A DNA stretch of 64,000 bases from Chloropicon primus (Eukaryota), in NCBI GenBank assembly GCA_023205875.1, contig CP060766.1, positions 62,001-126,000 on the forward strand, written 5' to 3'. The notes beneath the pieces were generated by a model. The model was not told where the DNA came from, did not search any database, and was given only the letters and a program-made list of their open reading frames with translations. Positions 20,489 to 47,384 of this stretch are shown here, one piece after another (the stretch's first letter is position 1; every line of letters starts with the position of its first letter). Both the position numbers and the translations under genes were made by a program.

Positions 20489-21343
20489 ATGAGGCGTCCC
20501 ACGAGACAAAGTCCCAGAACACGCACCAGGTCGACGGCGGCGACGACAGCAGCGACGACCGACGCCGACGGTGATGACAAGGGAGGACTGCTCGCAAAGC
20601 CAACGCTTCGGGATGCCATCTGTTGCGTTCTTCAAAATGCGGGAGGGAGGAGCTTGCACTACAATGAGATCCTTGAGAAGATCCAGGCCAAGAAGTTGTA
20701 TGTTTTCATGCGTAAGGATGGTTCGCTTTCTTTTGATCCGAAGAAAATGGGAGCCAGTGTCAATACTGTTTGCAACAAGAACTCCCGCAACAAGAACCCC
20801 CACTTTGCTCGCACTGCACCCGGAACATACGCAATTGCCGCTGACTCCTTGAATGTGTCCAATATTCAAGATCATGTCAGGCCCTCACCGCTTGGTGATG
20901 CCATCTCTCGCGTTCTTCAAGATGCGGGAAGGAGTTTACGACCCAAAGCGACGACCGACGCCGACGGTGATGACAAGGGAGGACTGTTCACAGGTGGTCC
21001 AGATCCAGCGCAGGTGTTGATAACTATGATGCGAGACAACACACATCGCATGACTGCTCGCAATCGAAAGACTGCTCGCAATCAAAAGAGAACGCTTCGG
21101 GATGCCATCTATCGCGTTCTTCAAGATGCAGGGAGGAGCTTGCGCGTCAAAGAGATCCTTGTCCGGATCCAGGCCAAGAGGTTGTATGTGTTCAGGCAGA
21201 AGGGTGGTTCTATTTGTCAAAATCTAGAGAGATTGCGGAACCGTGTGAGCTCTACTTGTATAAAGAGCCCCTGCTTTGTTCGCACTGCACGTGGACTATA
21301 TGCCATTGCCAAGGAATACTTGAATCGATCAACCACTGGCTGA
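20489..21343 (+). CDS. HARE-HTH domain protein, copy 1 (chimeric; SHOCT-like tail lies out of frame downstream)
   Basis: TLRDAICCVLQNAGGRSLHYNEILEKIQAKKLY...ASVNTVC...FARTAPGTYAI; two complete domains plus one truncated. Confidence 0.7.
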   Translation: MRRPTRQSPRTRTRSTAATTAATTDADGDDKGGLLAKPTLRDAICCVLQNAGGRSLHYNEILEKIQAKKLYVFMRKDGSLSFDPKKMGASVNTVCNKNSRNKNPHFARTAPGTYAIAADSLNVSNIQDHVRPSPLGDAISRVLQDAGRSLRPKATTDADGDDKGGLFTGGPDPAQVLITMMRDNTHRMTARNRKTARNQKRTLRDAIYRVLQDAGRSLRVKEILVRIQAKRLYVFRQKGGSICQNLERLRNRVSSTCIKSPCFVRTARGLYAIAKEYLNRSTTG

Positions 21344-22347
21344 ATCAGGAGCTGAATGAGGAGGACTCCAACGCCGCTGCCAACAACAACAACAACAACA
21401 ACATTATGAGTTCTCCCTATGCTTTGGTTTTGAGAGAGGCTCTCGAGTCCGGTCTGATGACGGAGGAGGAGTACGCCGAAGCCGTGCAGGAGGCCCAACG
21501 TGTTGGAAGCAAGTCACCGGAGGAGAAGAAAGAGATCGAGGACTACAACGAGGCGTTCTAGGTCGTTGTCGAGGACGCATCTCTTCTGTTGAGTGAAGAG
21601 CAAAAATTTGGTGTGAAGAGAGAATACCTCGAAGAGGTCGGGCTCAGCAAAGCTCGTAGTCGTCCGTCAAAGAGAAGACGACGCAAGACGGTCCCTTCCA
21701 TCGTCAAGGTCAAGCAGGAAGAGTGATGAGGGAGTGTTTAGGGTAGAGCGAGTAAGCCGTACAAGACAGTTGATGAAATGTAGATACAAATATGATCACT
21801 CTGTAGTCTGTGCCCTGACAGCAGTCTTTTCTCATCACCATCGTCATCCTCATCGACGCCGCCCCCGACCCGAGACCGCCGCGTACGTTACAAAGCAAGC
21901 AAGTGGCAGATCCAACTCATTTCTTGATCCAACACTAACCTTACGACCAAGCAAGTCCTTCCCTCTTGCCCTCGCCCCCTTCTCCAAAACAATGGGTTTC
22001 AGAATCCCTAGGCCGGAGAGAGAGGATAACGCATGAGCGGATAACGCTCGTTCTCATTTGGCGGCGGCGCATCACGTGGGAGAGAGGGTCTTTGTCGAAG
22101 AACTTTGTGCACGGACGGGGACGGCGAAGGGGAGGAGGTGTTGAAAGAACGGAAGCGCGTCTCAAGGGCTTTCCATTGATACCTCGGCTGAAGGTTTTGG
22201 CAAAAAAGAGTGATCCCTCGCGCCCTTTGAGGTTCTCAGAGGATCTCAGAAGTTTGTTTGTGAGCTCGGTTCGTGAAGAGGAAGGGGAGGGACGTCTTCG
22301 AAGGAACTCGTGGAGCAGTGCAGTGTTGTGCGGTGCTTTATTTCATC

Positions 22348-23265
22348 ATGAGGCGTCCCACGAGACAAAGTCCCAGAACACGCACCAGGTCGATGGCGGC
22401 GACGACAGCAGCGACGACCGACGCCGACGGTGATGACAAGGGAGGACTGTTCACAGGTGGTCCAGATCCAGCGCAGGTGTTGATGACTATGATGCGAGAC
22501 AACACACATCGCATGACTGCTCGCAATCAAAAGAGAACGCTTCGGGATGCCATCTGTTGCGTTCTTCAAAATGCAGGGCGGAGCTTGCGCGCCAGAGAGA
22601 TCCTTGAGAAGATCCAGGCCAAGAAGTTGTATGTTTTCATGCGTAAGGATGGTTCTGTTTGTTCTTCCTCTGACGCAATGCAGACACGTATCAGGTATGC
22701 TTGTCGAACGACCCCAAGCATTGCTCGGACTGCATACGGAGCATATGGAATTGCCAAGGAATCCTTGAATGGGTCCAATATTCAAGATGCTGTCAGGCCC
22801 TCACCGCTTGGTGATGCCATCTCTCGCGTTCTTGAAGATCAGGGAGGGAGCTTGCGCGTCAAAGAGATCCTTGCCAAGATCCTTGCCAAGAAGTTGTTTG
22901 TCTTCAGGCGGAAAGATGGCTCTGTTTCTAATGATCCGAAGAAAATGCGAGCCAGTGTCAATACTGTTTGCAACAAGAACCCCCGCTTTGTTCGCATTGC
23001 CCTGGGAACGTATGCCATTGCCAAGGAGTGCTTGAATGGAGCCACCATTGACGAGCTGAATGAGGAGGACTCCAACGCCGCTGCCAACAACAACAACAAC
23101 AACAACATTATGAGTTCTCCCTATGCTTTGGTTTTGAGAGAGGCTCTCGAGTCCGGTCTGATGACGGAGGAGGAGTACGCCGAAGCCGTGCAGGAGGCCC
23201 AACGTGTTGGAAGCAAGTCACCGGAGGAGAAGAAAGAGATCGAGGACTACAACGAGGCGTTCTAG
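22348..23265 (+). CDS. HARE-HTH domain protein, copy 2 (two domains + SHOCT-like motif)
   Basis: Two LxDAIxxVL..G.SL...EIL.KI.AKKL...F.R...G.Y.I domains; LREALESGLMTEEEYAEAVQ. Confidence 0.75.
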   Translation: MRRPTRQSPRTRTRSMAATTAATTDADGDDKGGLFTGGPDPAQVLMTMMRDNTHRMTARNQKRTLRDAICCVLQNAGRSLRAREILEKIQAKKLYVFMRKDGSVCSSSDAMQTRIRYACRTTPSIARTAYGAYGIAKESLNGSNIQDAVRPSPLGDAISRVLEDQGGSLRVKEILAKILAKKLFVFRRKDGSVSNDPKKMRASVNTVCNKNPRFVRIALGTYAIAKECLNGATIDELNEEDSNAAANNNNNNNIMSSPYALVLREALESGLMTEEEYAEAVQEAQRVGSKSPEEKKEIEDYNEAF

Positions 23266-24051
23266 GTCGTTGTCGAGGACGCATCTCTTCTGTTGAGTGA
23301 AGAGCAAAAATTTGGTGTGAAGAGAGAATACCTCGAAGAGGTCGGGCTCAGCAAAGCTCGTAGTCGTCCGTCAAAGAGAAGACGACGCAAGACGGTCCCT
23401 TCCATCGTCAAGGTCAAGCAGGAAGAGTGATGAGGGAGTGTTTAGGGTAGAGCGAGTAAGCCGTACAAGACAGTTGATGAAATGTAGATACAAATATGAT
23501 CACTCTGTAGTCTGTGCCCTGACAGCAGTCTTTTCTCATCACCATCGTCATCCTCATCGACGCCGCCCCCGACCCGAGACCGCCGCGTACGTTACAAAGC
23601 AAGCAAGTGGCAGATCCAACTCATTTCTTGATCCAACACTAACCTTACGACCAAGCAAGTCCTTCCCTCTTGCCCTCGCCCCCTTCTCCAAAACAATGGG
23701 TTTCAGAATCCCTAGGCCGGAGAGAGAGGATAACGCATGAGCGGATAACGCTCGTTCTCATTTGGCGGCGGCGCATCACGTGGGAGAGAGGGTCTTTGTC
23801 GAAGAACTTTGTGCACGGACGGGGACGGCGAAGGGGAGGAGGTATTGAAAGAACGGAAGCGCGTCTCAAGGGCTTTCCATTGATACCTCGGCTGAAGGTT
23901 TTGGCAAAAAAGAGTGATCCCTCGCGCCCTTTGAGGTTCTCAGAGGATCTCAGAAGTTTGTTTGTGAGCTCGGTTCGTGAAGAGGAAGGGGAGGGACGTC
24001 TTCGAAGGAACTCGTGGAGCAGTGCAGTGTTGTGCGGTGCTTTATTTCATC

Positions 24052-25101
24052 ATGAGGCGTCCCACGAGACAAAGTCCCAGAACACGCACCAGGTCGATGG
24101 CGGCGACGACAGCAGCGACGACCGACGCCGACGGTGATGACAAGGGAGGACTGTTCACAGGTGGTCCAGATCCAGCGCAGGTGTTGATGACTATGATGCG
24201 AGACAACACACATCGCATGACTGCTCGCAATCAAAAGAGAACGCTTCGGGATGCCATCTGTTGCGTTCTTCAAAATGCGGGAGGGAGGAGCTTGCACTAC
24301 AATGAGATCCTTGAGAAGATCCAGGCCAAGAAGTTGTATGTTTTCATGCGTAAGGATGGTTCGCTTTCTTTTGATCCGAAGAAAATGGGAGCCAGTATCA
24401 ATGCTATTTGCAACAAGAACTCCCGCAACAAGAACCCCCACTTTGCTCGCACTGCACCGGGAACATACGAAATTGCCGCTGACTCCTTGAATGGGTCCGA
24501 TACTCAAGGTGCTGTCAGCACCTCACCGCTTGGTGATGCCATCTCTCGCGTTCTTCAAGATGCAGGAAGGAGTTTACGACCCAAAGAGATCCTTGCTAAG
24601 ATCCTTGCCAAGAAGTTGTTTGTCTTCAGGCGGAAAGATGATTCTGTTTCTAATGATCCGAAGAAAATGCGAGCCAGTGTCAACACTGTTTGTAGCCGGA
24701 ACCCCCGCTTTGTTCGCACTGCCCTGGGAACATATGCCATTGCTACTGACTCCTTGAATGGGTCCAATGCTCAAGTTGCTGTCAGCGCCGCACCACTTCG
24801 GGATGCCATCTATCGCTTTCTTCAAGATGTGGGAGGGAGCTTGCACTACAAAGAGATCCAGGCCAAGATCCAGGCCAAGAAGCTATATGTGTTCAGGCGT
24901 ATGGATGGTTCGCTTTCTTTTGATCAGAAGGCAATGTGGTCCAGTGTCAGAACTGTTTGTTCACAGTCTCCTCTCTTTGTTCGCACTGAACCGGGAACAT
25001 ACGCGATTGCCAAGGACTTGAGAAAGGCTCTCGAGTCCGGCCTGATGACGGAGAAGGAGTACGCCCAAGCCGTGCAGCAGGCCCAGCGTTATGAGTCATA
25101 A
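24052..25101 (+). CDS. HARE-HTH domain protein, copy 3 (three domains + SHOCT-like motif)
   Basis: Three domains; LRKALESGLMTEKEYAQAVQ; the stop codon is created by a 14-nt insertion. Confidence 0.75.
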   Translation: MRRPTRQSPRTRTRSMAATTAATTDADGDDKGGLFTGGPDPAQVLMTMMRDNTHRMTARNQKRTLRDAICCVLQNAGGRSLHYNEILEKIQAKKLYVFMRKDGSLSFDPKKMGASINAICNKNSRNKNPHFARTAPGTYEIAADSLNGSDTQGAVSTSPLGDAISRVLQDAGRSLRPKEILAKILAKKLFVFRRKDDSVSNDPKKMRASVNTVCSRNPRFVRTALGTYAIATDSLNGSNAQVAVSAAPLRDAIYRFLQDVGGSLHYKEIQAKIQAKKLYVFRRMDGSLSFDQKAMWSSVRTVCSQSPLFVRTEPGTYAIAKDLRKALESGLMTEKEYAQAVQQAQRYES

Positions 25102-30694: not shown

Positions 30695-33037
30695 CTACAG
30701 CTCGTCCTTCGCCTCAAGCTCCTTCCTCGCCTCCTCCGGGAGGTCCTCCGGCTTGCTGGCATGGTCCCCGATCCACTCCAGCAGCCTGTCCTTGAGGAAT
30801 CCCTGCGTCTTGTTGAACTCGATGGGCATCATCTTGTTGCTCGAGGGAAACAAGTACGTGCAAGGAAAGTAGCCGATGTCCGGGAACTCCCTCGGTTTCT
30901 CGTTCTTGAACCCGTCGATCTTGCCGATCAACACGCTCTCCGTCCCCTCGAGGACCTCCGCGGCGTTCTTGAGCTCCGTCTCGTCGTAGTCCCACTTGTC
31001 ATCCATGGGGGAGTAAAAGTGGATCACGACGTCCTTGGTGGGGTCCAGGACCACCTCCATGAGGTTCTCCCCCACCACGTCGTACACCGGGCCGACGTTC
31101 GACTCCCTGCTCGGCACGGGCTCCGACCTGAGTTTGTCCGGGCTCCCCAGCACGGTCTTGTCCCTGCCCACGAAGCCCTCCACCAGGCGCTCGATCCTCC
31201 CGAAAGTCAGAGGCCTGTCCGAGCTCGCCTCGATGCAGTACCTGTACTCCTCCCTGAAGTCCTCCAGGACGGCAAAGGTGGTCTCTCCGTCGAAGTCGCA
31301 CCTCAGATGGCTCAGCAGGTCCATCGCGGCCGTGTTGTTGCTGCTCACGTGGGTGTACACGAAAGTCAGCCTCTTCGCGTTGGCCTTGGCCACGGGCCGG
31401 ACGACGTCCAAGATCTCCTCGTGGTGGCTCGTGTCGTTCCCCGCCAGCAGGATGTAGAGCATGGGGTTCCCCTTCCTCCTGAACTCTGGGAAGTTGTTCG
31501 GGGTGACTTGCTCCAGGACCTTGAACTGCGCTTTCCTCAGCCAGTGGAACACGGCCTTGGCCTTCCAAGACGACGACGAGGACAAGGTCTTCTTGTTCTT
31601 GTTCTTGTTCTTGTGGTGGCGTCGTAACGGCTCCGGGTACCGTAACGGCTCCTCGCCAGCCTTGAGAGCGAGAAGCGTGATGCCGGTGCTGGAGGAGGAC
31701 GAGGAGGACGAGGAGACGAGGCCCGAGACGTTGGAATTGGCCTCGTCGTCCAGGTTGCTGTTGCTGCTGTTGTTGTTGCTCTTCTTCTTCTTTTCCTCCT
31801 CCTTGAGGAGGGCGAGGACGGTCGCCTCGGTCGTCTTCACGAAGACCATGCTCGTGTGCTTGACCAGCATCGCCCGGAACTTTTTTGCGGCGCCCTCGAA
31901 GGCCCTCTCGGCCGCCTTGGCCCGCCTCGCCTCGTCGCTTCCCTCGCTGTCCTCTGGCACAACGAAGAGGGCCACCCTCTCCATCCGGGTCAGGACGTCC
32001 TCCAGGGCCTCGGCGCCGCCGTCGACGTCCAGCCAGGCCGGCTGGAGCTGCTCGACCAGGTAGTGCTGCAGCTGCCTCGAGCTCCTCACGGAGGGGGCGT
32101 CCACCGTGACCACGTCCCCGTCCCGGAAGAACAGCTTGAGCTGGGGGAAGCTCGTGACATGGAGCCTCTTCATCACCTCGAAGGATGCGATCCCATCCAC
32201 CCTGCCCACCGAGAGCTGCTTGTTCTCCTCGTTGACCTGGCTGGCGACGTGGGCCAGGAGCTTGGCGAGCTGCCTGCACCCCTTGCACCTCTCCGCCCTC
32301 TCGAAGCACAGCACGAGCGTCAGGTTGGCCCGCTCCAGGTACGGCGCCAGCGTCCCCGCGTCCAGCAAGGGCACGAGGGAGTCGTCGTACTCCTCCTCGG
32401 GGAAAGATGCCACCTTTGTCACGGTCAGGTCGTCGTCCAGCCACTCCGAGTCCAGGAGTGGCCGCGGTGGGCCATTCTCGTCCTCGTCCTCGTCCTTCCA
32501 CCGCTTCCAGTCCACCCCCACCTTGCTCCTCAGGGGGTCCTTCGGGTCCCGAAGCAGCCTCGGCCAGTACATCCACTGCCACTTCTTCCTCACCGTCAGC
32601 AGGACTCCTTCCTTGGTTGTTGTCGCTGCTGCTGAGGACGAGGACTCTATCCTGCGAAAGTAGTGGAGCAGGAGGCAGTATGGTGGTGGGGATGATGGTG
32701 AAGAGGAGGAGTCCTCGCCGGACGACGACGTCGCCCGGACCAGCAGGTGGGTGTCGTTCTGGTGAACCACCACGGAGGATGCCACGAGGGAGGGCACAAG
32801 CACCCTGATGTACAGGAGCTCGGACCTCTGAGCCCACAAGACCCTCGGCGTGGTGGTGGTGGTGTCCGTGGGGCAGGAGAAAAAGCTTGTTGTTGTTGAT
32901 GTTGTTGATGATGATGAATGGTGGTCCAATGCAACAACATCATTTTGGTCTGGTGGTGGTGTGGCTGCTGCTAGTGGTGGTGCAGCAAGCAGCAGCAGCA
33001 GCAGCAGCGATGTGGTCAGCAGGAGCAGCAGCCTCAT
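30695..33037 (-). CDS. ER-lumenal p23/CS-domain + PDI-like thioredoxin-fold protein
   Basis: Leu-rich signal peptide; PRVLWAQR...YWPRLL...VGVDWKRWKDEDED; CKGC thioredoxin domain; LRSEPVP..GPVYDVVG; C-terminal KDEL. Confidence 0.8.
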   Translation of the reverse strand: MRLLLLLTTSLLLLLLLAAPPLAAATPPPDQNDVVALDHHSSSSTTSTTTSFFSCPTDTTTTTPRVLWAQRSELLYIRVLVPSLVASSVVVHQNDTHLLVRATSSSGEDSSSSPSSPPPYCLLLHYFRRIESSSSAAATTTKEGVLLTVRKKWQWMYWPRLLRDPKDPLRSKVGVDWKRWKDEDEDENGPPRPLLDSEWLDDDLTVTKVASFPEEEYDDSLVPLLDAGTLAPYLERANLTLVLCFERAERCKGCRQLAKLLAHVASQVNEENKQLSVGRVDGIASFEVMKRLHVTSFPQLKLFFRDGDVVTVDAPSVRSSRQLQHYLVEQLQPAWLDVDGGAEALEDVLTRMERVALFVVPEDSEGSDEARRAKAAERAFEGAAKKFRAMLVKHTSMVFVKTTEATVLALLKEEEKKKKSNNNSSNSNLDDEANSNVSGLVSSSSSSSSSTGITLLALKAGEEPLRYPEPLRRHHKNKNKNKKTLSSSSSWKAKAVFHWLRKAQFKVLEQVTPNNFPEFRRKGNPMLYILLAGNDTSHHEEILDVVRPVAKANAKRLTFVYTHVSSNNTAAMDLLSHLRCDFDGETTFAVLEDFREEYRYCIEASSDRPLTFGRIERLVEGFVGRDKTVLGSPDKLRSEPVPSRESNVGPVYDVVGENLMEVVLDPTKDVVIHFYSPMDDKWDYDETELKNAAEVLEGTESVLIGKIDGFKNEKPREFPDIGYFPCTYLFPSSNKMMPIEFNKTQGFLKDRLLEWIGDHASKPEDLPEEARKELEAKDEL

Positions 33038-33566
33038 CGCTATCGTATCGAGTCAGTATATCAATAGCGGTCGATCAACAGCAGCAGCAGCAGCAGCAGC
33101 AGCACAATTGTTTTTTGTGTTTTTGTTTTTTGTGTTTTTGTTTTGTGTGTGTGTGTGTGTGTGTGCTGATGGTCTTGGTGGGATAGAAGACCGATCCGAC
33201 CGAAGAACGGCGGCGGTCCAAGCGACCGAACGACGACCGAACGACGACCGAACCGCCAACCAACCAATCAATTTCCTTTTGACCTCAAGATGCTGCTGCT
33301 GCTGCTGCTGATGCCGTTCTTTCTTGGAGTCGTCGCCGTCGCCGTCGCGGTGGTGAATGAATGAATGGATCAATGGATCGATGGATCGATGGTGTGAACC
33401 AATTCCAGCAGCAACCAAGTTGGAGCCTCTGGAAGTCCAAGCCCCAAGTCCCTCTCCACCTCCTTGAGGAGCTCAACTAACAAAACTGATAGGGAAGAAG
33501 AGGAGGAGAGGGAGGAAAGAGGGAGGAGGAAGGAAGGAAGGAAGAGGTGCCACGTGATGATAAATC

Positions 33567-34865
33567 GACGACAACAAGGTGATACCAAAAGATGATACCA
33601 AGACGACAACAAGACGACAACAAGATGACAACAAGGTGATACCAAGACGACAACAAGGTGGTACCCTAAGATGATACCAAGACGACAACAAGGTGATACC
33701 AAAAGATGATACCAAAAGATGATACCAAGACGACAACAAGGTGATAACAAGGTGATACCAAGACGACAACAAGGTGATACCAAAAGATGATACCAAGACG
33801 ACAACATGGTGACAACAAGACGACAACAAGATGATACCAAGATGACAACAAGGTGATACCCTAAGGTGATACCCTAAGATGATACCCTAAGATGATACCA
33901 AGACGACAACAAGGTGATACCCTAAGATGATACCAAGACGACAACAAGGTGACAACAAGATGACAACAAGGTGATAACAAGATGACAACAAGGTGATACC
34001 CTAAGATGATACCAAGACGACAACAAGGTGATACCCTAAGATGATACCAAGACGACAACAAGGTGACAACAAGATGACAACAAGGTGATAACAAGATGAC
34101 AACAAGGTGATACCCTAAGATGATACCAAGACGACAACAAGGTGATACCCTAAGATGATACCAAGACGACAACAAGGTGATAACAAGATGACAACAAGGT
34201 GATACCAAGATGACAACAAGGTGATAACAAGGTGATACCCTAAGATGATAACAAGACGACAACAAGATGACAACAAGATGACAACAAGGTGATAACAAGG
34301 TGATACCAAAAGATGATACCAAGACGACAACAAGATGACAACAAGATGACAACAAGGTGATAACAAGGTGATACCAAAAGATGATACCAAGACGACAACA
34401 AGGTGATAACAAGGTGATACCAAAAGATGATACCAAGACGACAACAAGGTGATAACAAGGTGATACCCTAAGATGATACCAAGACGACAACAAGGTGATA
34501 CCCTAAGATGATACCAAGACGACAACAAGGTGATACCAAAAGATGATACCAAGACGACAACAAGGTGATAACAAGGTGATACCCTAAGATGATACCAAGA
34601 TGACAACAAGGTGATAACAAGATGACAACAAGGTGATAACAAGATGACAACAAGGTGATACCCTAAGATGATACCAAGATGACAACAAGATGACAACAAG
34701 ATGACAACAAGGTGATACCAAGATGACACCAAGTTGATACCAAGATGACAACAAGGTGGGAACAAGATGACAACAAGGTGATACCAAGATGACAACAAGG
34801 TGGGAACAAGATGACAACAAGGTGATACCAAGACGACAACAAGGTGGGAACAAGGTGGGGCACAA
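33567..34865. repeat. Variant minisatellite, 11-bp units AAG(A/G)(T/C)GA(T/C)A(A/C)C with 13-bp variants
   Basis: Interspersed AAGACGACAAC, AAGATGACAAC, AAGGTGATACC, AAGGTGATAAC, AAGATGATACC, CTAAGATGATACC, AAAAGATGATACC; AAGGTGGGAAC near the right end. Confidence 0.95.
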
Positions 34866-35120
34866 GAAGTTGCACGGCCTTTGGATGAGGCGGCCACGCT
34901 TCAAAGATGATGCCGTACGTGTGCGAGCAGCGCCAACGGAAGGAGGACGAGGACTACTTGCGAGGAAGTCGATAACGGTGGCGGAGATCTTTCGACCCAA
35001 AGCTTATGGGGCGGAATACATATATTGTATTTTAAGGGAAGCCTTCTGCCGTACCAGACTTTGTAGACTACAATGTACAGACTCGTCACCATGTTGACGT
35101 TTGTGGAGCGTCCATGTCAC

Positions 35121-36214
35121 TCAAAACCAGCGTCTGTAAAAGTCATGGCTCGGCTTTGCCCCCTCTAGTTTTGCACCGCTCGAGTTGCTTTCATGGGGCT
35201 TCTTCGCGATTTCCAGGTGGACCACGTCGCCTTCGTTCACACGGACGCGAGGGTGAAACGCGAAACGTGCGTGACGGCAGCGAGTCCAATCGTCGCACGA
35301 GCGAGCGCAAGAACAGGTACATGGGTCGCAGTCCACCTCCACCAAGGCCGGGCTGGCCGGCGAGCCGTGGAACTGCACCGAAAGCCATCCCGCGAACAAG
35401 TTGATCTCGCCACTTTGCTCCGCGTTGAAACGGCAGTTGAGTCTCATACTGCGCACATCCTCCGAGGTCGCAGTGAGCAAGTCCATCGTCTTGACCAACT
35501 CGAAAGGCGCGACCAGCTCGGGAGACTCTATATGGACGTCGTACCTCTGCTGGTCTGCAAGGCCGTCGCTCGCACGCCCCCGCTTGCCCATGCCTCTCCT
35601 GCGTTTCGTCCTCTGCCCGTGCGACTCTTCTTCGTCGCAGACCTCCACCATTGGTTCCTCTGACTCAAACTCCGTCGAGGCCGAGGCAGCTGGAGCGAGG
35701 AACACCTTGCAGTGAGAAGGGTACATGGCTCCGTCGGGTTTGAGGTACCTGTCTCTGGCGTTCAGAATCCTGTAGATCTTGGAGTGTTGCAGCCAGACAT
35801 CACCCGCCAAGTCGGACAAGATGATGTCCACCTTCCCTTGAATGTCCTCCTTCTTGGCTATGTTCTCGTCGTACACAGTGACGGTATCACCACCTAATTT
35901 GGTAGCATGCACGAGCTGCATGAGCTGCCTGGTAAAGACTTCCTCTTTCGTATCTGGCAGGATGTACACCTTCCTTGCCCCCGCTAAGGCGGCGAAGAAA
36001 CCGAGCACTCCACAACCGACGTCCAAGACCACTTTCCCCTGAAAGAGAGAGTCATTAAAAAAGATAGCGTCTCCGTACGCTTCTGGACAGCTCAAAACAT
36101 CCAGTAGCGGAGCAAAGGTAACCCAGGTAGCGTAGGTCAGGAAGGCTTCGTTGTCCCACGGCAGAGGAGTGTCCCCTTCCAAGGGCGGTGTGCCTTCGTC
36201 TTCCGCCGCCACCA
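35121..36214 (-). CDS. Degenerate protein-arginine methyltransferase-like protein (PRMT10-like)
   Basis: FQGKVVLDVGCG, ALAGARKVY, KVDIILSD, LNARDRYLKPDGAMYPSH, FAGWLSVQFHGS; catalytic motifs altered. Confidence 0.75.
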
Positions 36215-36639
36215 TGCTTGCTCTGTCTGCTCTTCGGTGGAGTGCCGCAAGCAAAACCCAGTCAACCAAACAACGACGTGTTCCATTAATTCTATGAAGA
36301 TGGGGTTCGATTCTCCCAACAACAATAGGATCCTAATCTGTGGAAAAAGAAAGAAAGCCTGGAATGATGAACATGATATTCACGGAGAAATAAATTCATG
36401 AAGCTCACATAACATTACCTATCCTGTTAGGCGTGAAACTAGTTTCGTTTGAGAGGCACTCTCGTGTGAGTTTTAGTGTTTCATTTTTTTCTGAAAATAA
36501 TCACATCGGCTCTTTCTCGTGAGCCTCTTATCCAGGGGGTATATAAGGCGAAGTCGACCAACAGAGCGCCTCACTTTTACGAACACGAGCTCGTACAAAC
36601 ACACACAACAACAAACCCAAACACCAAATCATCATCATA

Positions 36640-37242
36640 ATGGAGTCCGAGAGAAGATCCACCATGTCCAGCCTCAAGGGACAGTTGTCCAACGTCGAGG
36701 GCTCTGTCAAGAGCATGAAGGCCGCCGTCGTTGTCGGTTCCGTCTTGACCGTTGCCTGCTTGGCCGCCGTCTTCGGAGTCACCATCCTCGCCAACGAGGT
36801 CTCCAAGGAGGTTAAGGTTTCCAACGGAACCCTCACCGCCAAGAACGGACAGGCTGTCTTGACCACCAACTTGATCGCCACCACGAACGTCAACAGCGTC
36901 CTCCCAAAGGCCATTGAGTTGACCCACAACAACGTCGATATTGTTGCCAAGGTCAACGCCGTCGTTTCCGAGGGTGCCAAGACTACCTTGATCTGCGACG
37001 ACCTCGTCTACACCAGCGAGAACGGACAGGGCTCCACCCAGGTCACCTCTGGCTCCGTCTTGGAGTCCGTTTTGGACAACACCGTTGAGAAGAGAAACAA
37101 CGAAGATTCCAGCATGGATCGTTATTGTGATCGCCAAGTTCATCATTGGCGCTGGCTGTGACGGAATCGCCGCGAGCGAGGCTTTCCTGGATACGGCAAG
37201 GCCATCCAGAAGGCCATCCAGTTGTGCAGCGACTGGATCTAA
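36640..37242 (+). CDS. Membrane-anchored peptide-precursor-like protein, copy A (in-frame TGA at 37159-37161; probably disrupted or mis-called)
   Basis: Shared N-terminus MESERRSTMSSLKGQ...AVVVGSVLTVACLAAVFGVTILANEVSKEV; TLICDD; VEKR; the frame continues past TGA to TAA 37242 (...GYGKAIQKAIQLCSDWI). Confidence 0.65.
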
Positions 37243-37526
37243 AGGACCTGAATGAGAAACCCATATAATATACAGTTTTTTCGATATACAGTTTTTCGAT
37301 ATACAATTTAGTTCTGTTGGTGACCATCTTAGCCCGCGATCAGTAAAACATATTAGTTATGTACTTTGGAAGCCTTCTTTAAAGGCGATGCACTTGCACA
37401 CATACTTCTCTTCTCATGACTGGAGATGCAATAATTGATTTGGATACTTTTGTTAAGAAATTTCTTTCCACTGTATATTATATATTTCTTCCGAGTAAAA
37501 CCTTAAGGATTAGGAAAGGAAGTAAT

Positions 37527-38093
37527 TTACTGGTTCTCCTTCAACCACTCTCTGGCCCAAGCGGCACCCTTCTTGACGAGCCACTGAACGACGGCCATGA
37601 CGCACTTTCTCATGCTAGGCTTCCTCTTGCACTTCTTGCCGTAGTCCTGGTTAAGGCTTCTGAGCTCCAAGCTGTCCTCAGAGTCAAGGAAAGATCCCTC
37701 ACGGATGAGGACCTCCTCACCGATGACAACGATGTCGTCGCAGATGGTGGTGACGGTGGTTCCCTGGGTAACAACAGCGTTGACAGCGAAGACTCCGTTG
37801 AAGGAGCCGAAGTCAGCGACCACGCTCTCGGCAAGACCAGAAGCCTTGTTGGAGGTGTAGGTGGTGGTGGTCAAGACAGCCTGTCCGTTCTTGGTGGAGA
37901 GGGTTCCGTTGGAAACCTTAACCTCCTTGGAAACCTCGTTGGCGAGGATGGTGACTCCGAAGACGGCGGCCAAGCAGGCAACGGTCAAGACGGAACCGAC
38001 AACGACGGCGGCCTTCATGCTCTTGACAGAGCCCTCGACGTTGGACAACTGTCCCTTGAGGCTGGACATGGTGGATCTTCTCTCGGACTCCAT
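37527..38093 (-). CDS. Membrane-anchored peptide-precursor-like protein, copy B
   Basis: Same N-terminus; TTICDD; LELR then SLNQDYGKKCKRKPSMRKCVMAVVQWLVKKGAAWAREWLKENQ. Confidence 0.8.
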   Translation of the reverse strand: MESERRSTMSSLKGQLSNVEGSVKSMKAAVVVGSVLTVACLAAVFGVTILANEVSKEVKVSNGTLSTKNGQAVLTTTTYTSNKASGLAESVVADFGSFNGVFAVNAVVTQGTTVTTICDDIVVIGEEVLIREGSFLDSEDSLELRSLNQDYGKKCKRKPSMRKCVMAVVQWLVKKGAAWAREWLKENQ

Positions 38094-38501
38094 TATGATT
38101 TGGTGTTTGGGTTTGTTGTTTTTGTGTGTGTGTGTGTTTGTACGAGCTCGTGTTCGTAAAAGTGAGGCCCTCTGTTGGTCGACTTCGCCTTATATACCCC
38201 CTGGATAAGAGGCTCACGAGAAAGAGCCGATGTGATTATTTTCAGAAAAAAATGAAACACTAAAACTCACACGAGAGTGCCTCTCAAACGAAACTAGTTT
38301 CACGGATGATATGATAGGCCTTATCGTGTGAGTTTCATTGTTTTTTCTATTTTTCACAGCTTCCACCAGGCTCTCTCTTGTGATTTTAATTAATCCCAGT
38401 GGGGTATATAAGGCGAACTCAACACACAGAGCGCCTCACTTTTACGAACACGAGCTCGTACAAACACACACAAAAACAACAAACTCAAACACCAAATCAT
38501 A
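38094..38501. promoter_or_regulatory. Bidirectional promoter with two GGGGTATATAAGGCG TATA boxes
   Basis: TATATAA at 38190-38196 (-) and 38405-38411 (+), each about 90-100 bp from an ATG; further copies at 36540 (+), 40087 (-), 40302 (+). Confidence 0.75.
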
Positions 38502-39104
38502 ATGGAGTCCGAGAGAAGATCCACCATGTCCAGCCTCAAGGGACAGTTGTCCAACGTCGAGGGCTCTGTCAAGAGCATGAAGGCCGCCGTCGTTGTCGGT
38601 TCCGCCTTGACCGTTGCCTGCTTGGCCGCCGTCTTCGGAGTCACCATCCTCGCCAACGAGGTCTCCAAGGAGGTTAAGGTTTCCAACGGAACCCTCACCG
38701 CCAAGAACGGACAGGCTGTCTTGACCACCAACTCCTTCTTCACCGATAAGGCTAACAGCAACACTGAGTCCGTGGTCTTGAACTCTAAGGACGGTGCTAC
38801 CAGCGGAGTCTTCGCTGTCAACGCTGTTGTCACTGTGGGAACCAAGGCCACCATGATCTGCGACGACATCGTTGTTGTCAGCGAGAACGGTGCCAACGAC
38901 ATCACCATCGCTGAGGACTCCATCTTGAACAGCCTCATGCAGGAGGTTGAGGCCAGAAGTGTGAGCAAGTTGCCCAAGTGGCATCCATTCTGGTGGGCTG
39001 TTGGAAAGTTCAAGGCCTACATCTATGAGAACAGACAGGAGATCTGGGACTACGGAAAGAGATCTAGTGCTACCATGGACATGTGCGGTGTCGCTTGCGA
39101 CTAA
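38502..39104 (+). CDS. Membrane-anchored peptide-precursor-like protein, copy C
   Basis: Same N-terminus; TMICDD; VEAR then SVSKLPKWHPFWWAVGKFKAYIYENRQEIWDYGKRSSATMDMCGVACD. Confidence 0.8.
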   Translation: MESERRSTMSSLKGQLSNVEGSVKSMKAAVVVGSALTVACLAAVFGVTILANEVSKEVKVSNGTLTAKNGQAVLTTNSFFTDKANSNTESVVLNSKDGATSGVFAVNAVVTVGTKATMICDDIVVVSENGANDITIAEDSILNSLMQEVEARSVSKLPKWHPFWWAVGKFKAYIYENRQEIWDYGKRSSATMDMCGVACD

Positions 39105-39372
39105 AGAAGATCAATTGTCTAAAATATAATATGATATTTATGCAAAAAGTAACTACTTTTTCGAATTGAACGCAATGTGATGGAAGCACGGAATCTACAG
39201 CAGGAACAAGTCTCTGGTTACAAGTAACTTACTTGTGCGCCGTAGTCGACCTCGAGAAAACGTTGAACACCACCAAAGCAAACTTCAACATTGTCTGCGA
39301 AAGAATCAACTTTTGCATAAATATCATATTATAACAGAGATGGTGAATTTTGTTTTAGACAATTTATCTTCT

Positions 39373-39996
39373 TTAGCCGCAAGCGACACCGCACATGTCC
39401 ATGGTAGCACTAGATCTCTTTCCGTAGTCCCAGATCTCCTGTCTGTTGTCCCAGAGGTAGTCATATGCACCATGAATAAGCTTCGTGGTGTACTTCTCGC
39501 AAACCTTCTTCCAAGCACCAAACCAGCCGCACATACCGTTCACGCTTCTCTTCTCGACACTGTCACTCAGGTTGTTCAACATCGAGTCCTCAGTAACCTG
39601 GACATCGGTCTCACCGCCCTCCTGGGAGACAACGACGTCGTCACAGATGAGGGTAAGCTTGGTTCCCTGGGTGACAACAGTGTTGACGGCGAAGGTACCG
39701 GTCATGTCCTGATCAGCAAGGGTGACAACGGCGGTGGACGTGGAGAACTTTGCGGTGTAGTACATGTTGGTGGTCAAGACAGCCTGTCCGTTCTTGGCGG
39801 TGAGGGTTCCGTTGGAAACCTTAACCTCCTTGGAGACCTCGTTGGCGAGGATGGTGACTCCGAAGACGGCGGCCAAGCAGGCAACGGTCAAGACGGAACC
39901 GACAACGACGGCGGCCTTCATGCTCTTGACAGAGCCCTCGACGTTGGACAACTGTCCCTTGAGGCTGGACATGGTGGATCTTCTCTCGGACTCCAT
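39373..39996 (-). CDS. Membrane-anchored peptide-precursor-like protein, copy D
   Basis: Same N-terminus; TLICDD; VEKR then SVNGMCGWFGAWKKVCEKYTTKLIHGAYDYLWDNRQEIWDYGKRSSATMDMCGVACG. Confidence 0.8.
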   Translation of the reverse strand: MESERRSTMSSLKGQLSNVEGSVKSMKAAVVVGSVLTVACLAAVFGVTILANEVSKEVKVSNGTLTAKNGQAVLTTNMYYTAKFSTSTAVVTLADQDMTGTFAVNTVVTQGTKLTLICDDVVVSQEGGETDVQVTEDSMLNNLSDSVEKRSVNGMCGWFGAWKKVCEKYTTKLIHGAYDYLWDNRQEIWDYGKRSSATMDMCGVACG

Positions 39997-40323
39997 TATG
40001 ATTTGGTGTTTGAGTTTGTTGTTTTTGTGTGTGTTTGTACGAGCTCGTGTTCGTAAAAGTGAGGCCCTCTGTTGGTCGACTTCGCCTTATATACCCCACT
40101 GGGATTAATTAAAATCACAAGAGAGAGCCTGGTGGAAGCTGTGAAAAATAGAAAAAACAATGAAACTCACACGATAAGGCCTATCATATCATCCGTGAAA
40201 CTAGTTTCGTTCGAGAGGCACTCTCGTGTGAGTTTTCGTGTTTCATTTTTTTCTGAAAATAATCACATCGGCTCTTTCTCGTGAGCCTCTTATCCAGGGG
40301 GTATATAAGGCGAAGTCGACCAA

Positions 40324-40974
40324 TAAGCTCACGAAATTGTGTTCTTGATGGACAAAACTGATTTCGATGCAAGGTACGTGTGAGCCTGATTGGATCACAC
40401 CAGAAGAAGAAGCAGCGCGAACTAGAGGGTTCTCCTCCGTCTTCATCAGCCTCCCGTCAAGGCTGTCCAGGTAACCCACCCGGTACAGGCCCTCCACCCT
40501 CGCCTTTGTGATGTCCTCCACCGGGAAGTACGTGTGGAGGGCGACCGTGTACACCATCTCCTCGCACCCCGTGTTCGTCACCATGAGCTTGGTGAACAGC
40601 TGCGTGTTGGTTATCGTGTACCTCACGTTGATGGTGAAGCTGTCCTCGCACCCGTACTTGTCCAAAAAGTCGTCGTCCGAGCTGTTCAGCTTGAGCACCA
40701 CCGTGTCCCCCTCCCTCTCGAACAGCTTCCACCGGGTGTTCCTCGCGAACCCGTGGCTCGTCTTCAGGTTCCCAAAGTCGCTGAACTGCGGGAAGCATAT
40801 CGGGACCCCGCCCCGAATCGCTTTCGGGGGCTTGAACACCGCCTGCTTCGACACAAATACCTGCTCCTGCCCGTTCGCCGTCTTCCACGACGTCAGGTGA
40901 GCCCCGTGGAGCTCGATGCACGCCCGAGCCCCGCTCGGGTGCCCTATGTACACCTTTTCCTCGCTCGACGCCAT
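40324..40974 (-). pseudogene. Glucose-6-phosphate 1-epimerase (aldose 1-epimerase family), 3'-truncated
   Basis: LHGAHLTSWK, KAIRGGVPICFPQF, SHGFARN, ALHTYF, GYLDSL; similarity stops near 40420 and the DAVVWNPW / CVE C-terminal third is not visible in the window. Confidence 0.7.
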
Positions 40975-41138
40975 CGACAACACCTCCTCCCCACCCCCAA
41001 CACCAACCCCCCCCCTCCCTCGCCCTGGGGTTGGGTGGGAGGTCCGTTGTATTGTTTGTGTTTGGAGAGAAGTCGTTCGTTCGTTCGTTCGTTCGTTCGT
41101 TCGTTCGTTCTGCCTTGAGCCTGACAGATCTCGGAGAG

Positions 41139-42442: not shown

Positions 42443-42483
42443 GGTGGGCCTTGTCTTGCTTGTTCTATTATTAACAAGCATCA

Positions 42484-42658
42484 AAGATGATACCAAGGTG
42501 ATACCAAGACGACAACAAGGTGATACCCTAAGATGATACCAAGACGACAACAAGGTGACAACAAGGTGACAGCAAGATGACAGCAAGATGACAACAAGAT
42601 GACAGCAAGACGACAACAAGATGACAACAAGATGACAACAAGATGATACCAAGATGAC
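42484..42658. repeat. Second, shorter array of the same 11-bp minisatellite
   Basis: AAGATGATACC AAGGTGATACC AAGACGACAAC ... including a local AAGATGACAGC variant; same orientation as the 33.6-kb array. Confidence 0.93.
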
Positions 42659-42849
42659 CGAATTCTTCTTCCCTGAATGAAATAGAGAATCCATTGTGCC
42701 TCGATTGTGTCTCCTCCTGGTGCATTGATCCCATGGAAAGGACCGAGCCGAGGAGGACGAGGAGGAGAGAATCTCTTGGCTTTAGCAAGGGACAGGCCGA
42801 GGAGAGGAGGAAGGAGGAAGGAGGACGAGGACACGCAGGCACACACACA

Positions 42850-45313: not shown

Positions 45314-46870
45314 TTACGAATTAGCCTTCATCCAATCGACGACGTGCTGGTGATTGTAGTACTTCGCCTCTCTTCTGCAATCCTCTGGGTTCCAATCACA
45401 AGGCGGATCCTGGCTTCGAGCCCACTGCAGAACCTCAAGGTGACCTCTTCGAGCTGCCCCATCACAAGTATACTTGTTCCAAGGGCAAGGCGGGTCCTGG
45501 CTTCGAACCCACTGCAGGACATCAAGGTGACCTCCTCGAGCTGCGTACCAACAAGTCCCCGCGTTCCAATCACAAGGCGGATCCTGGCTTCGAGCCCACT
45601 TCAGAACATCAAGGTGACCTCCTCCAGCTGCCTCATAACAAGTCCTCGAGTCCCAATCGCAAGGCGGGTCCTGGCTTCGAAGCCACTGCAGAACCTCAAG
45701 GTGACCTCTCATAGCTGCCATCCCACAAGTCCCCGCGTCCCAAGGGCAAGGTGGATCCTGGCTTCGAAGCCACTGCAGAACCTCAAGGTGACCTTCTAGA
45801 GCTGCATCACCACAAGTCTGCTGGTCCCAAGGGCAAGGCGGATCCTGGCTTCGGAGCCACTGCAGAACGTCAAGGTGACCTCCTCGAGCTGCCCATTTAC
45901 AAGTCGCCCAGCCCCAATCACAAGGCGGGTCCTGGCTTCGAGCCCACTGCAGAACGTGAAGGTGACCTCCTTTAGCTGCCCAATCACAAGTCAACTCGTC
46001 CCAATCACAAGGCGGGTCCTGACTTCGAGCCCACTTCAGAACATCAAGGTGACCTCCTGCAGCTGCCTCATAACAAGTCTCCTCGTCCCAAGGGCAAGTC
46101 GGGTCCTGGCTTCGAGCCCACTGCAGAATGTGAAGATGACCTCTTGAAGCTGCCTCTTTACAAGTCTCGTAGTTCCAATCGCAAGGCGGGTCCTGGCTTC
46201 GAAGCCACTGCAGAACATCAAGGTGACCTCCTCGAGCTGCCCAATCACAAGTCAACTCGTCCCAATCACAAGGCGGGTCCTGGCTTCGGAGCCACTTCAG
46301 AACGTCAAGGTGACCTCCCCGAGCTGCATAAGAACAGGTCCACACATTAAACCCGTACCCCTCGCTCCTCAACCATTCCAGCAACTCAATGTGACCTCCT
46401 GCAGCAGCTCCTGTAGCTGCTACCACTTCATGATCCTCGCGATCGATATTCAAAGGGATCCCTTGGCTCACCAACCACTCCATCACCTTCTTGCTGCCCT
46501 GGAAAGCGGCGAGAAACATCAGGTCAGAGTCGTACAAGTGGTCGTCGTACTCGCCCTCTCTCAACTCTATCGGCCCTCCCTTCCTCCTTTTGAACGACCG
46601 AAGCACCCACTGGAACCAACCCAAACTGAAGCGAGGCATCTGCTCGAACAACTTGTCGTCCGTCAGGTCCGTCTTCAGAGCAACCTTCTTCTTCGGATCA
46701 GGGTTCGCCGTTGTCACCGCCTCGAAGAACATCTTGCAGGTCAACCCGAAAGCGACCCGGTCGTAGTCGGCCACATGCGTGCCAATGACGCTCCACAGTA
46801 CCCCCGGCAGCACGTCCAGTGCATCCCTGCCCTCCCTCCTCTGCCTCTTGCTCTCCATCGTCTCCTCCAT
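45314..46870 (-). CDS. F-box-like + 11 x 29-aa ankyrin-like repeat protein, copy 1
   Basis: LDVLPGVLWSVIG...DRVAFGLTCKMF; repeats TCxxAAxxGHLxVLQWxRSQDPPCxWxxx. Confidence 0.85.
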   Translation of the reverse strand: MEETMESKRQRREGRDALDVLPGVLWSVIGTHVADYDRVAFGLTCKMFFEAVTTANPDPKKKVALKTDLTDDKLFEQMPRFSLGWFQWVLRSFKRRKGGPIELREGEYDDHLYDSDLMFLAAFQGSKKVMEWLVSQGIPLNIDREDHEVVAATGAAAGGHIELLEWLRSEGYGFNVWTCSYAARGGHLDVLKWLRSQDPPCDWDELTCDWAARGGHLDVLQWLRSQDPPCDWNYETCKEAASRGHLHILQWARSQDPTCPWDEETCYEAAAGGHLDVLKWARSQDPPCDWDELTCDWAAKGGHLHVLQWARSQDPPCDWGWATCKWAARGGHLDVLQWLRSQDPPCPWDQQTCGDAALEGHLEVLQWLRSQDPPCPWDAGTCGMAAMRGHLEVLQWLRSQDPPCDWDSRTCYEAAGGGHLDVLKWARSQDPPCDWNAGTCWYAARGGHLDVLQWVRSQDPPCPWNKYTCDGAARRGHLEVLQWARSQDPPCDWNPEDCRREAKYYNHQHVVDWMKANS

Positions 46871-47384
46871 CTTCACGTCCGTGCACCTCAGATGATCCTC
46901 ACCAATGGGTCGTTCTTGTCGCGCGAGGGCTCGCTCGAAAGAGCAAGAGACACTCCTTCCGCTCGTCTATCACTCGAGAGAAACCTCCGGCACAAAATCC
47001 CGCCCTCGTCGTCGCCTCCCTTCCTCGGTGATCTACTCCTCGATTTCTTTCTGCCTCTCTTTTTCGTGTTTCGTGTCGCCAGATCCTCACCACTGGGTCG
47101 TTTCTTTCGCGCGAGAGCTCGTTCGAAAGAGCACGAGACAACGCTTCCTTCTTTCCTGTCTTCCGCTTCTCTCTCTCTCTCTTCCTCCTCCACGCGCTCC
47201 CGTCCTCTTCGTTTCTCTCTCGTGCTCGTCCTCGTTCGGCCCCTCGTGGCCTCGGGCCGTTTTGATGGTTCAGCGGAAGGGAGAAAATCCACCGGAAGAG
47301 AAAGAGCAAAGGAGAAAGGAGGAGGAGGAATCAGAAGAGGAAGCGAAGGTCGATGACAGGTTCGTCGTGAGACATTGTTCTTGG

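Follow-up and report, generated by a model that had tools for sequence, protein, structure and literature searches.

A cluster of candidate prepropeptide genes with a homogenised front end and hypervariable tails in the green alga Chloropicon primus

Introduction

Conotoxins are made as prepropeptides in which a conserved leader and a pro-piece precede a hypervariable mature peptide, and Candida Ece1 is grouped with the yeast killer preprotoxins K1, K2 and K28 among the secretory precursors cut at basic sites. Shufflons (R64 Rci/sfx) and antigenic-variation cassettes combine a constant N-terminus with variable C-termini, in an inverted arrangement with traces of recombination, while palindromes and concerted multigene families retain near-identical arms through arm-to-arm conversion and have their spacers inverted by occasional crossover. 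Here, we describe a cluster of four paralogous genes, A–D, from Chloropicon primus, located in a 64 kb (64,000 nucleotide) stretch of contig CP060766.1 (assembly GCA_023205875.1, positions 62,001–126,000 of the forward strand), referred to below as the window. The Chloropicophyceae are dominant picophytoplankton in moderately oligotrophic seas. The reading that we prefer, with a probability of roughly 60%, is that the cluster belongs to an arsenal of prepropeptides whose front end is homogenised genome-wide by gene conversion, and whose predicted anchored precursors would be cut to free hypervariable peptides used in defence or competition.

The described precursors resemble those encoded by the cluster to different extents. 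Frog-skin antimicrobial peptides and α-defensins, as treated in excerpts of PMC7073735, likewise have a conserved leader, an acidic pro-piece and a basic site, followed by a hypervariable mature peptide with Cys and Trp, a negative correlation between pro and mature charge, and many paralogs. In contrast to these animal prepropeptides, to which no sequence homology was found, the Chloropicon family has an uncleaved-looking signal anchor and a cytosolic coiled-coil-like stretch rather than a short signal peptide, a folded β pro-domain of ≈75 amino acids (aa), intronless genes of alternating orientation, and a unicellular green-algal host, and its leader is homogenised at synonymous sites along with the TATA box and the untranslated region (UTR). 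Plant RALF, PROSCOOP and GOLVEN (excerpts of PMC13082318) belong to the green lineage and have an RxL-type site before a C-terminal, often Cys-paired peptide, but no Pfam or sequence match between them and the Chloropicon family was found, the Chloropicon tails have no conserved receptor-binding motif in common, and the anchor and pro-domain differ. The yeast killer preprotoxins (excerpts of PMC13211469) share the secretory precursor, the basic-site cuts, the disulfides, the hydrophobic helices and the proposed antagonism, whereas no homology to them was found, and the predicted Chloropicon product is a single short C-terminal peptide from a chromosomal multigene family with no shown immunity function. 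Compared with a shufflon, the cluster has no border crossover sites or silent cassettes, no recombinase was found, and the recombination tract is the constant part. It also departs from palindrome arm conversion: homogenisation is confined to the front third of each gene and reaches beyond the arms to other chromosomes.

Results and Discussion

Organization of the Cluster

Between 36.4 and 40.3 kb of the window, which comes from a compact green-algal chromosome, four paralogous, intronless open reading frames (ORFs) lie in the order +/−/+/−, forming a head-to-head and tail-to-tail set whose front ends are near-identical and whose tails are very different (Table 1). A reading made earlier from the sequence alone had proposed this layout, with inverted arms of about 440 and 558 bp, and the ORFs and arm alignments confirm it. 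Identity ceases at codon 76–77 (...GQAVLTT) in all four genes and in every pair, also as first read: the genes differ at 0–4 positions in the 228 nt before the codon-76 border and at 74–106 positions in the ≈210 nt beyond it. The match between the 3′ ends of C and D, likewise noticed earlier, amounts to 2 differences in 75 coding nt (D codons 183–207), and its longest identical run of 70 nt was reached in 0/2000 permutations. Upstream of gene D, the sequence is a three-part mosaic at the TATA box, consisting of P2 and, past the TATA, a short stretch of B type, both seen in the initial reading, and then a C-type UTR. The exact sequence of gene D has also been recorded from a transcriptome source (mmetsp).

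Table 1. Coordinates of the cluster, its control regions and its right junction, numbered within the window.
Feature	Position	Strand	Description
Diverged remnant of P2-like promoter	36398–36431	+	Upstream of A, partner gene absent; 36398–36561 matches 40160–40323 at 91%
P1 and 5′ UTR of A	36432–36639	+	TATA 36540, initiator 36573, TACGA-N8-TCGTA palindrome 36578
Gene A	ORF 36640–37161, homologous end 37242	+	Precursor; two compensating frameshifts here (near 37100 and 37185) lead to stop at 37159–37161
Gene B	38093–37527	−	188-aa precursor; site LELR/SLN; 43-aa tail, net charge +8, 2 Cys
Head-to-head control region B/C	38094–38501		B UTR, TATA (−) 38196, P1 ≈38201–38305, P2 ≈38300–38400, TATA (+) 38405, C UTR
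Gene C	38502–39104	+	200-aa precursor; site VEAR/SVS; 48-aa tail, 3′ end D-type
Gene D	39996–39373	−	207-aa precursor; site VEKR/SVN; 57-aa tail, 4 Cys
D-side control region	39997–40323		D UTR, TATA (−) 40093, P2|P1, TATA (+) 40302
Inverted arm pair A/B	36432–36868 vs. 37865–38304		427 positions match over 437/440 nt; 4 substitutions and two gaps (9 and 6 nt)
Inverted arm pair C/D	38175–38732 vs. 39766–40323		558 nt, 550 matches, gap-free
C/D 3′ conversion tract	39017–39146 vs. 39311–39460		Flanks tail-to-tail spacer (whole 39017–39460)
Right junction	40324–40977	−	103 nt of other origin, then aldose-1-epimerase-family gene cut at 40427; Pfam PF01263, profile positions 3–200 of 299

What had been taken for a bidirectional promoter is instead two diverged copies, P1 and P2, of one ≈100-bp promoter placed back to back: they match at 69 positions over 105/101 nt, and in each a TATA box of its own stands 33 nt upstream of an initiator-like TCACTT. 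The last P1 breaks off at 40323, 21 nt past its TATA box, and the fifth gene that followed has been lost. Elsewhere in the genome, a third upstream type adjoins the same TATA (loose contig end at 38403). A palindrome, TACGA-N8-TCGTA, with a variable 8-nt spacer is found just past the initiator at 36578, 38141, 38443 and 40038, that is, in all four genes, and also in 7/10 other loci (L002–L008). It may be a site for a dimeric factor or a 5′ RNA hairpin; a recombination site seems less likely. The island had also been described as AT-rich. Its GC content is indeed 0.493, compared to 0.573 for the window, but the coding parts are at 0.55–0.57 and the promoters and UTRs at 0.34–0.41, so that the AT-richness resides in the promoters and UTRs and not in the coding DNA. 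Eight other intergenic stretches range from 0.41 to 0.58, and 33001–35000 is lower in GC than the island.

The analysis also drew on runs of short-read contigs (labelled X1–X5 and X8), named and metagenome proteins (P0xxx) and metagenome loci (L0xx). Contigs from X1 span the A–B tail junction (37237–37891) and, with 0 differences each, the C–D tail junction (39070–39394) and the P1|P2 junction (38231–38417); the latter is also crossed by X2 contigs. In X3, X4 and X5, a single contig carries D, P2|P1 and the right flank. Because independent contigs cross the junctions, the layout is real and not an assembly fold-back, the outcome that had been named as fatal to the palindrome. Gene A, which is frameshifted twice in this assembly, is in frame in the X1 and X2 contigs and in P0006 and P0126, and the frameshifts may represent either a pseudogene or an assembly error. 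Readthrough of its TGA was considered and rejected, as the other records show two frameshifts instead. A joint in X2 (39101–39378) that could be taken for an inversion is explained by the common C/D 3′ tract. Missing cover of A, B and C in X3, X4, X5 and X8 does not indicate that these genes are silent, and no copy numbers were derived from contig depth.

Predicted Precursor Architecture and Processing Site

A search with gene D yielded 255 homologs. From the first 120 of these, full-length members were hand-picked and aligned with the window genes, giving 70 sequences. All follow one plan, in which a signal-anchor leader of 76 aa is followed by an acidic β pro-region, an R-x-hydrophobic site and a hypervariable helical tail of 43–71 aa. 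Mean identity is 97% in residues 9–62, 63% in residues 63–76, 33% in residues 77–135 and 15% in the tail. A hydrophobic segment starting at residue 29 (KD19 of 2.48) with a basic N-flank predicts a secretory leader or signal anchor, and the topology would be that of a type II membrane protein, with a transmembrane segment at 29–47 and, beyond it on the opposite side, the N-glycosylation sequon N62. A structure model consisted of one long helix (6–58), a five-strand meander (90–134) and two tail helices, at a predicted template-modelling score of only 0.35; the single-sequence fold of P0126, with a predicted local distance difference test score of 37.5, was not used.

The tail is preceded by a conserved basic site of the processing type. 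Its Arg (residue 150 of D) is present in 69/70 members; position −2 is Glu in 53/70, position −1 Lys in 40/70 and position +2 hydrophobic in 59/70. According to the part of PMC13082318 that covers S1P/SBT6.1, the motif of this protease is RxLx, which the R-x-hydrophobic site fits at least as well as it does a dibasic site. The protease would be a subtilase of S1P/SBT6-like or Kex2-like type, with cleavage predicted to occur in the Golgi. The products are probably processed prepropeptides.

Composition and Divergence of the Tails

For comparison of the tails, 246 proteins were reduced to 185 with a leader, a site and a tail of ≥35 residues (32 had no leader, 24 had no site pattern and 5 were too short), and these to 80 types below 50% identity. 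The number of Cys residues is even in 68 of the 69 Cys-bearing types (Poisson expectation 0.44), and Trp is present in 77/80 tails, compared to 5/80 pro-regions. The pro-region is acidic in 77/80 types and balances the predicted mature peptide: pro and tail charges are anti-correlated, with rho between −0.49 and −0.65 across five de-duplication settings, by which relatedness was reduced rather than modelled, and most of the effect stems from the last 30 pro residues before the site. A charge balance between anionic propiece and cationic peptide is known from defensins and frog peptides, where it protects against self-toxicity (excerpts of PMC7073735). The hydrophobic moment of the tail was above that of shuffled sequences in 59/70 members. 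Among close paralogs, changes were concentrated in the tail in 5/9 pairs (Fisher p < 0.05; for example, 12/48 vs. 1/76 between A types), although the nine pairs are non-independent and were compared at the protein level. The pro-regions themselves have an ICDD motif, with a single Cys in 57/80, and residues 9–26, before the membrane segment, follow a heptad pattern; together, these features hint at oligomers.

Distribution of the Family

At up to 96% identity, named C. primus proteins are the top matches to gene D, and a profile search among 1.84 billion proteins returned 71 clusters at 50% identity. Named C. primus copies, traced through their proteins and gene numbers, are found on chromosomes 1, 3, 13, 14 and 16, and several C. 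roscoffensis copies on chromosome 7; these are the only two species named among the matches listed, the remainder being metagenome proteins. Five of 11 metagenome loci contain a second family copy, which is on the opposite strand in 5/5. The repertoire of at least nine types is largely the same in both C. primus strains. The cluster on chromosome 14 (P0069, P0070, P0073 and P0130) has at least four genes in one assembly and at least two in the other, possibly a copy-number change between strains.

No viral relative was found. There was no Pfam match at E < 0.001 in the 70 family members, no match in a sequence search of the PDB and no usable match in the Atlas searches; the best Foldseek E-value was 0.39, and VIA-align returned only generic helices (Z ≤ 5.9), with the tail and pro-domain not folded separately. 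A description of the family was not found in the literature, including the excerpted text of two Chloropicon genome papers (PMC6731263 and PMC12301720), and 0/5 gene names occur in one supplement of PMC12301720. It is a real, apparently undescribed Chloropicon gene family. Distant homologs retain an R-K/S/T/R-L/T/M-like site in 17 of the 18 inspected, some with Cys-rich or repeated cargo; in P0170, the same leader is followed by ≈9 QCxxC-S/N-N-x-GR units, resembling a multi-core peptide precursor. The retention of the site with other cargo suggests a general peptide-delivery leader.

Concerted Evolution of the Leader

In the first 76 codons, genes A–D have 0–1 synonymous differences in 70–73 codons, compared to 7–12 in 21–37 in the pro-region. 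The window leader differs from that of ten metagenome loci at 8–18 synonymous positions, while three of these loci (L002, L003 and L004) have 0 synonymous leader differences among themselves and three different cassettes. In the metagenome loci, too, the common tract begins at the TATA box. Leader type stands in for the species of these loci, and two pairs of them, L005/L008 and L006/L007, are possibly allelic. In a tree of the pro-region and tail, the grouping of nine named C. primus cassettes as one clade was rejected by the approximately unbiased (AU) test at p = 0.019, under a simple model and after a larger quick tree had been viewed. Although all nine carry the primus leader, the P0069 and P0073 cassettes group with the C. 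roscoffensis type (98/94 and 98/96). The cassettes thus go back further than the species split, and a later overwriting of the leader has reached across chromosomes. The 3′ end of C is D-type in the window and different in the C paralogs P0003 and P0005.

Paralogs are therefore closer at neutral sites within than between species, and the duplications predate the homogenised tract. Concerted evolution of the module from the TATA box to codon 76 can be asserted with high confidence, and the synonymous counts, the tree and the C/D tract support the earlier suggestion of gene conversion of the promoter and N-terminus with variable 3′ parts. Since C. primus copies on five chromosomes have the same leader, homogenisation appears to be genome-wide rather than merely from arm to arm.

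A Probable Inversion between the Arms

In both named assemblies, gene numbers give the order A, B, D, C on chromosome 3, which is the outcome expected of a crossover between the inverted C and D leaders. The inversion between arms that had been proposed has thus probably happened once. On chromosomes 1 and 3, the two strains agree in gene order; the inversion therefore looks historical, and the strain comparison suggested earlier finds the order unchanged. It would not act as an expression switch, since C and D are full genes and both are left behind P2; a swap of P1 and P2 would require an inversion between the leaders of B and C. No recombinase family was detected by Pfam among 34 ORFs in the window, a scan that covered neither ORFs of <150 aa, nor the repeat genes at 20.4–25.1 kb, nor the rest of the genome. 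Short crossover sites were absent from the border between constant and variable parts, which is simply the end of 330–560 bp of homology, and the sole palindrome lies in the 5′ UTR. The loci L002 and L003 resemble inversion isomers, but were not counted as such, because only 105 nt upstream of the ATG are in common.

Proposed Function

We propose that a membrane-anchored precursor would be cut by a Golgi protease at the R-x-hydrophobic site, releasing the tail. The released tails would be hypervariable, likely disulfide-bonded and membrane-active, masked by the acidic pro-region until cleavage, and would kill or deter bacteria, competitors or grazers. The identical ≈330-bp module would be the sole stretch long and alike enough to recombine; its uniformity would come from conversion, reinforced by purifying selection on the leader, while the pro-region and tail, being too diverged to recombine, would diversify. 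A rare crossover between inverted arms would flip two cassettes and so interconvert the orders A, B, C, D and A, B, D, C. Judged from sequence, a membrane-active defence role of the tails is slightly favoured, and defence is the likeliest of several functions for the predicted peptides.

Several observations count against this proposal. The tails are not uniformly cationic (38/80 positive, 34/80 negative, median charge 0), the hydrophobic moment exceeds that of shuffled sequences by z > 1.64 in only 32/70, with the tail of C failing, and the other 4/9 close pairs have no excess of changes in the tail. The sequence Lys-Arg is present in just 40/70 sites, making Kex2 by itself a poor fit. The leader is 80–91% identical between lineages, which exceeds the genome-wide average nucleotide identity of 78% between C. 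primus and C. roscoffensis (excerpts of PMC12301720), indicating that selection also contributes to its constancy. The order on chromosome 3 was derived from gene numbers, with the strands not seen, and the reservations stated above for the AU test, the leader proxy and the paralog pairs apply here as well.

Alternative Explanations

Palindromes are error-prone in assembly, and the two frameshifts in A are not seen in the X1 and X2 contigs; an assembly or fold-back artefact is nevertheless next to impossible, given four distinct cassettes, the independently crossed junctions, the recording of the B, C and D proteins on two contigs each, and the same arrangement in other lineages. It is refuted for the layout, and only the frameshifts of A may be assembly errors. 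Ordinary inverted duplication with purifying selection on the leader, without conversion, would agree with the conservation of the leader protein across the family, with a strong codon bias (GC3 of 0.75–0.78), and with segmental duplication of the A/B/C/D blocks, which recur on chromosomes 1, 3 and 13. Selection alone, however, cannot fix lineage-specific synonymous variants in paralogs with pre-speciation cassettes, nor can it homogenise 5′ UTRs or yield a D-type 3′ tract in C, and this explanation is improbable and largely refuted. An active shufflon or antigenic-variation locus, as the sequence-only reading had suggested, would swap the pairing of cassettes and promoters by frequent programmed inversion or conversion and thereby vary a surface tip. 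The near-perfect inverted arms, the order on chromosome 3, the two promoter types exchangeable by B/C leader inversion, the loxP-like character of the TACGA-N8-TCGTA palindrome and the possible copy-number difference on chromosome 14 would all fit. Against it, each of the genes is complete and equipped with a TATA and initiator of its own, leaving neither silent cassettes nor a single expression site; inversion of the second arm pair leaves promoter pairing unchanged; the recombinase scan of 34 window ORFs was negative; and both strains' genomes, with the same order on chromosomes 1 and 3, are reported as fully collinear in PMC12301720. The predicted cleavage site, moreover, points to release rather than display. 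The shufflon reading is unlikely.

A different function for the same precursors, with the same conversion, is that the peptides are signals, such as pheromones, density or identity cues, or RALF- or SCOOP-like ligands. A comparable precursor plan is known from the helical, disulfide-bonded pheromones of ciliates. Neutral or acidic tails make up half of the total, and C and D have G-K-R motifs. An S1P-type site is found in RALF and PROSCOOP (excerpts of PMC13082318). However, amidation-type motifs are present in only 12/80 tails, and 80 tail types without a common motif are unlike the ligands of a receptor family. The sharing of most types by both strains is unlike a mating-type locus, and the charge balance of the pro-region suits self-protection better; we find signalling a possible, if doubtful, alternative. 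With about the same reserve, we consider an extension of the arsenal reading into a eukaryotic bacteriocin-like system, in which dozens of killer peptides would share a 330-bp promoter-leader handle, and populations would swap cassettes and promoters (P1, P2 and others) by inversion and conversion, altering the toxins made. Under the prepropeptide arsenal that we prefer, the family offers no fewer than 80 tail types bearing the marks of peptide toxins. These would be testable candidates, since peptides of 50 residues are within reach of synthesis, and might serve as a new source of antimicrobials. The family also illustrates domain-restricted concerted evolution with unusual clarity, promoter, UTR and leader being homogenised genome-wide beside cassettes older than the species.

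Flanking Regions and Other Features of the Window

The epimerase gene to the right of the cluster is 3′-truncated at 40427, and its frame continues into the P1 stub (40243–40977, − strand). Both the truncated form and another continuation at 40427 are present in X3 and X4; the intact continuation is absent from the window. Contigs from X3, X4 and X5 extend from the epimerase via P1|P2 into D, and read-through is possible. At 41015–41027, upstream of a glycerol-3-phosphate dehydrogenase gene, an X2 contig has 405 other letters, reflecting a possible deletion or assembly gap in the window. On the other side, a divergent arginine-methyltransferase-like gene (35121–36269, − strand) adjoins A. The X1 and X2 contigs differ from it at several sites and have a greater depth than the right flank; the gene may therefore have been duplicated together with the cluster. 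Degenerate arrays of 11/13-nt repeats with strong strand skew lie on either side of the island (33400–35000 and 42460–42690). Further away, the window contains three direct tandem gene copies with repeated winged-helix-like units (20400–25100, + strand) and an ankyrin-repeat gene with many near-identical units (45314–46876, − strand).

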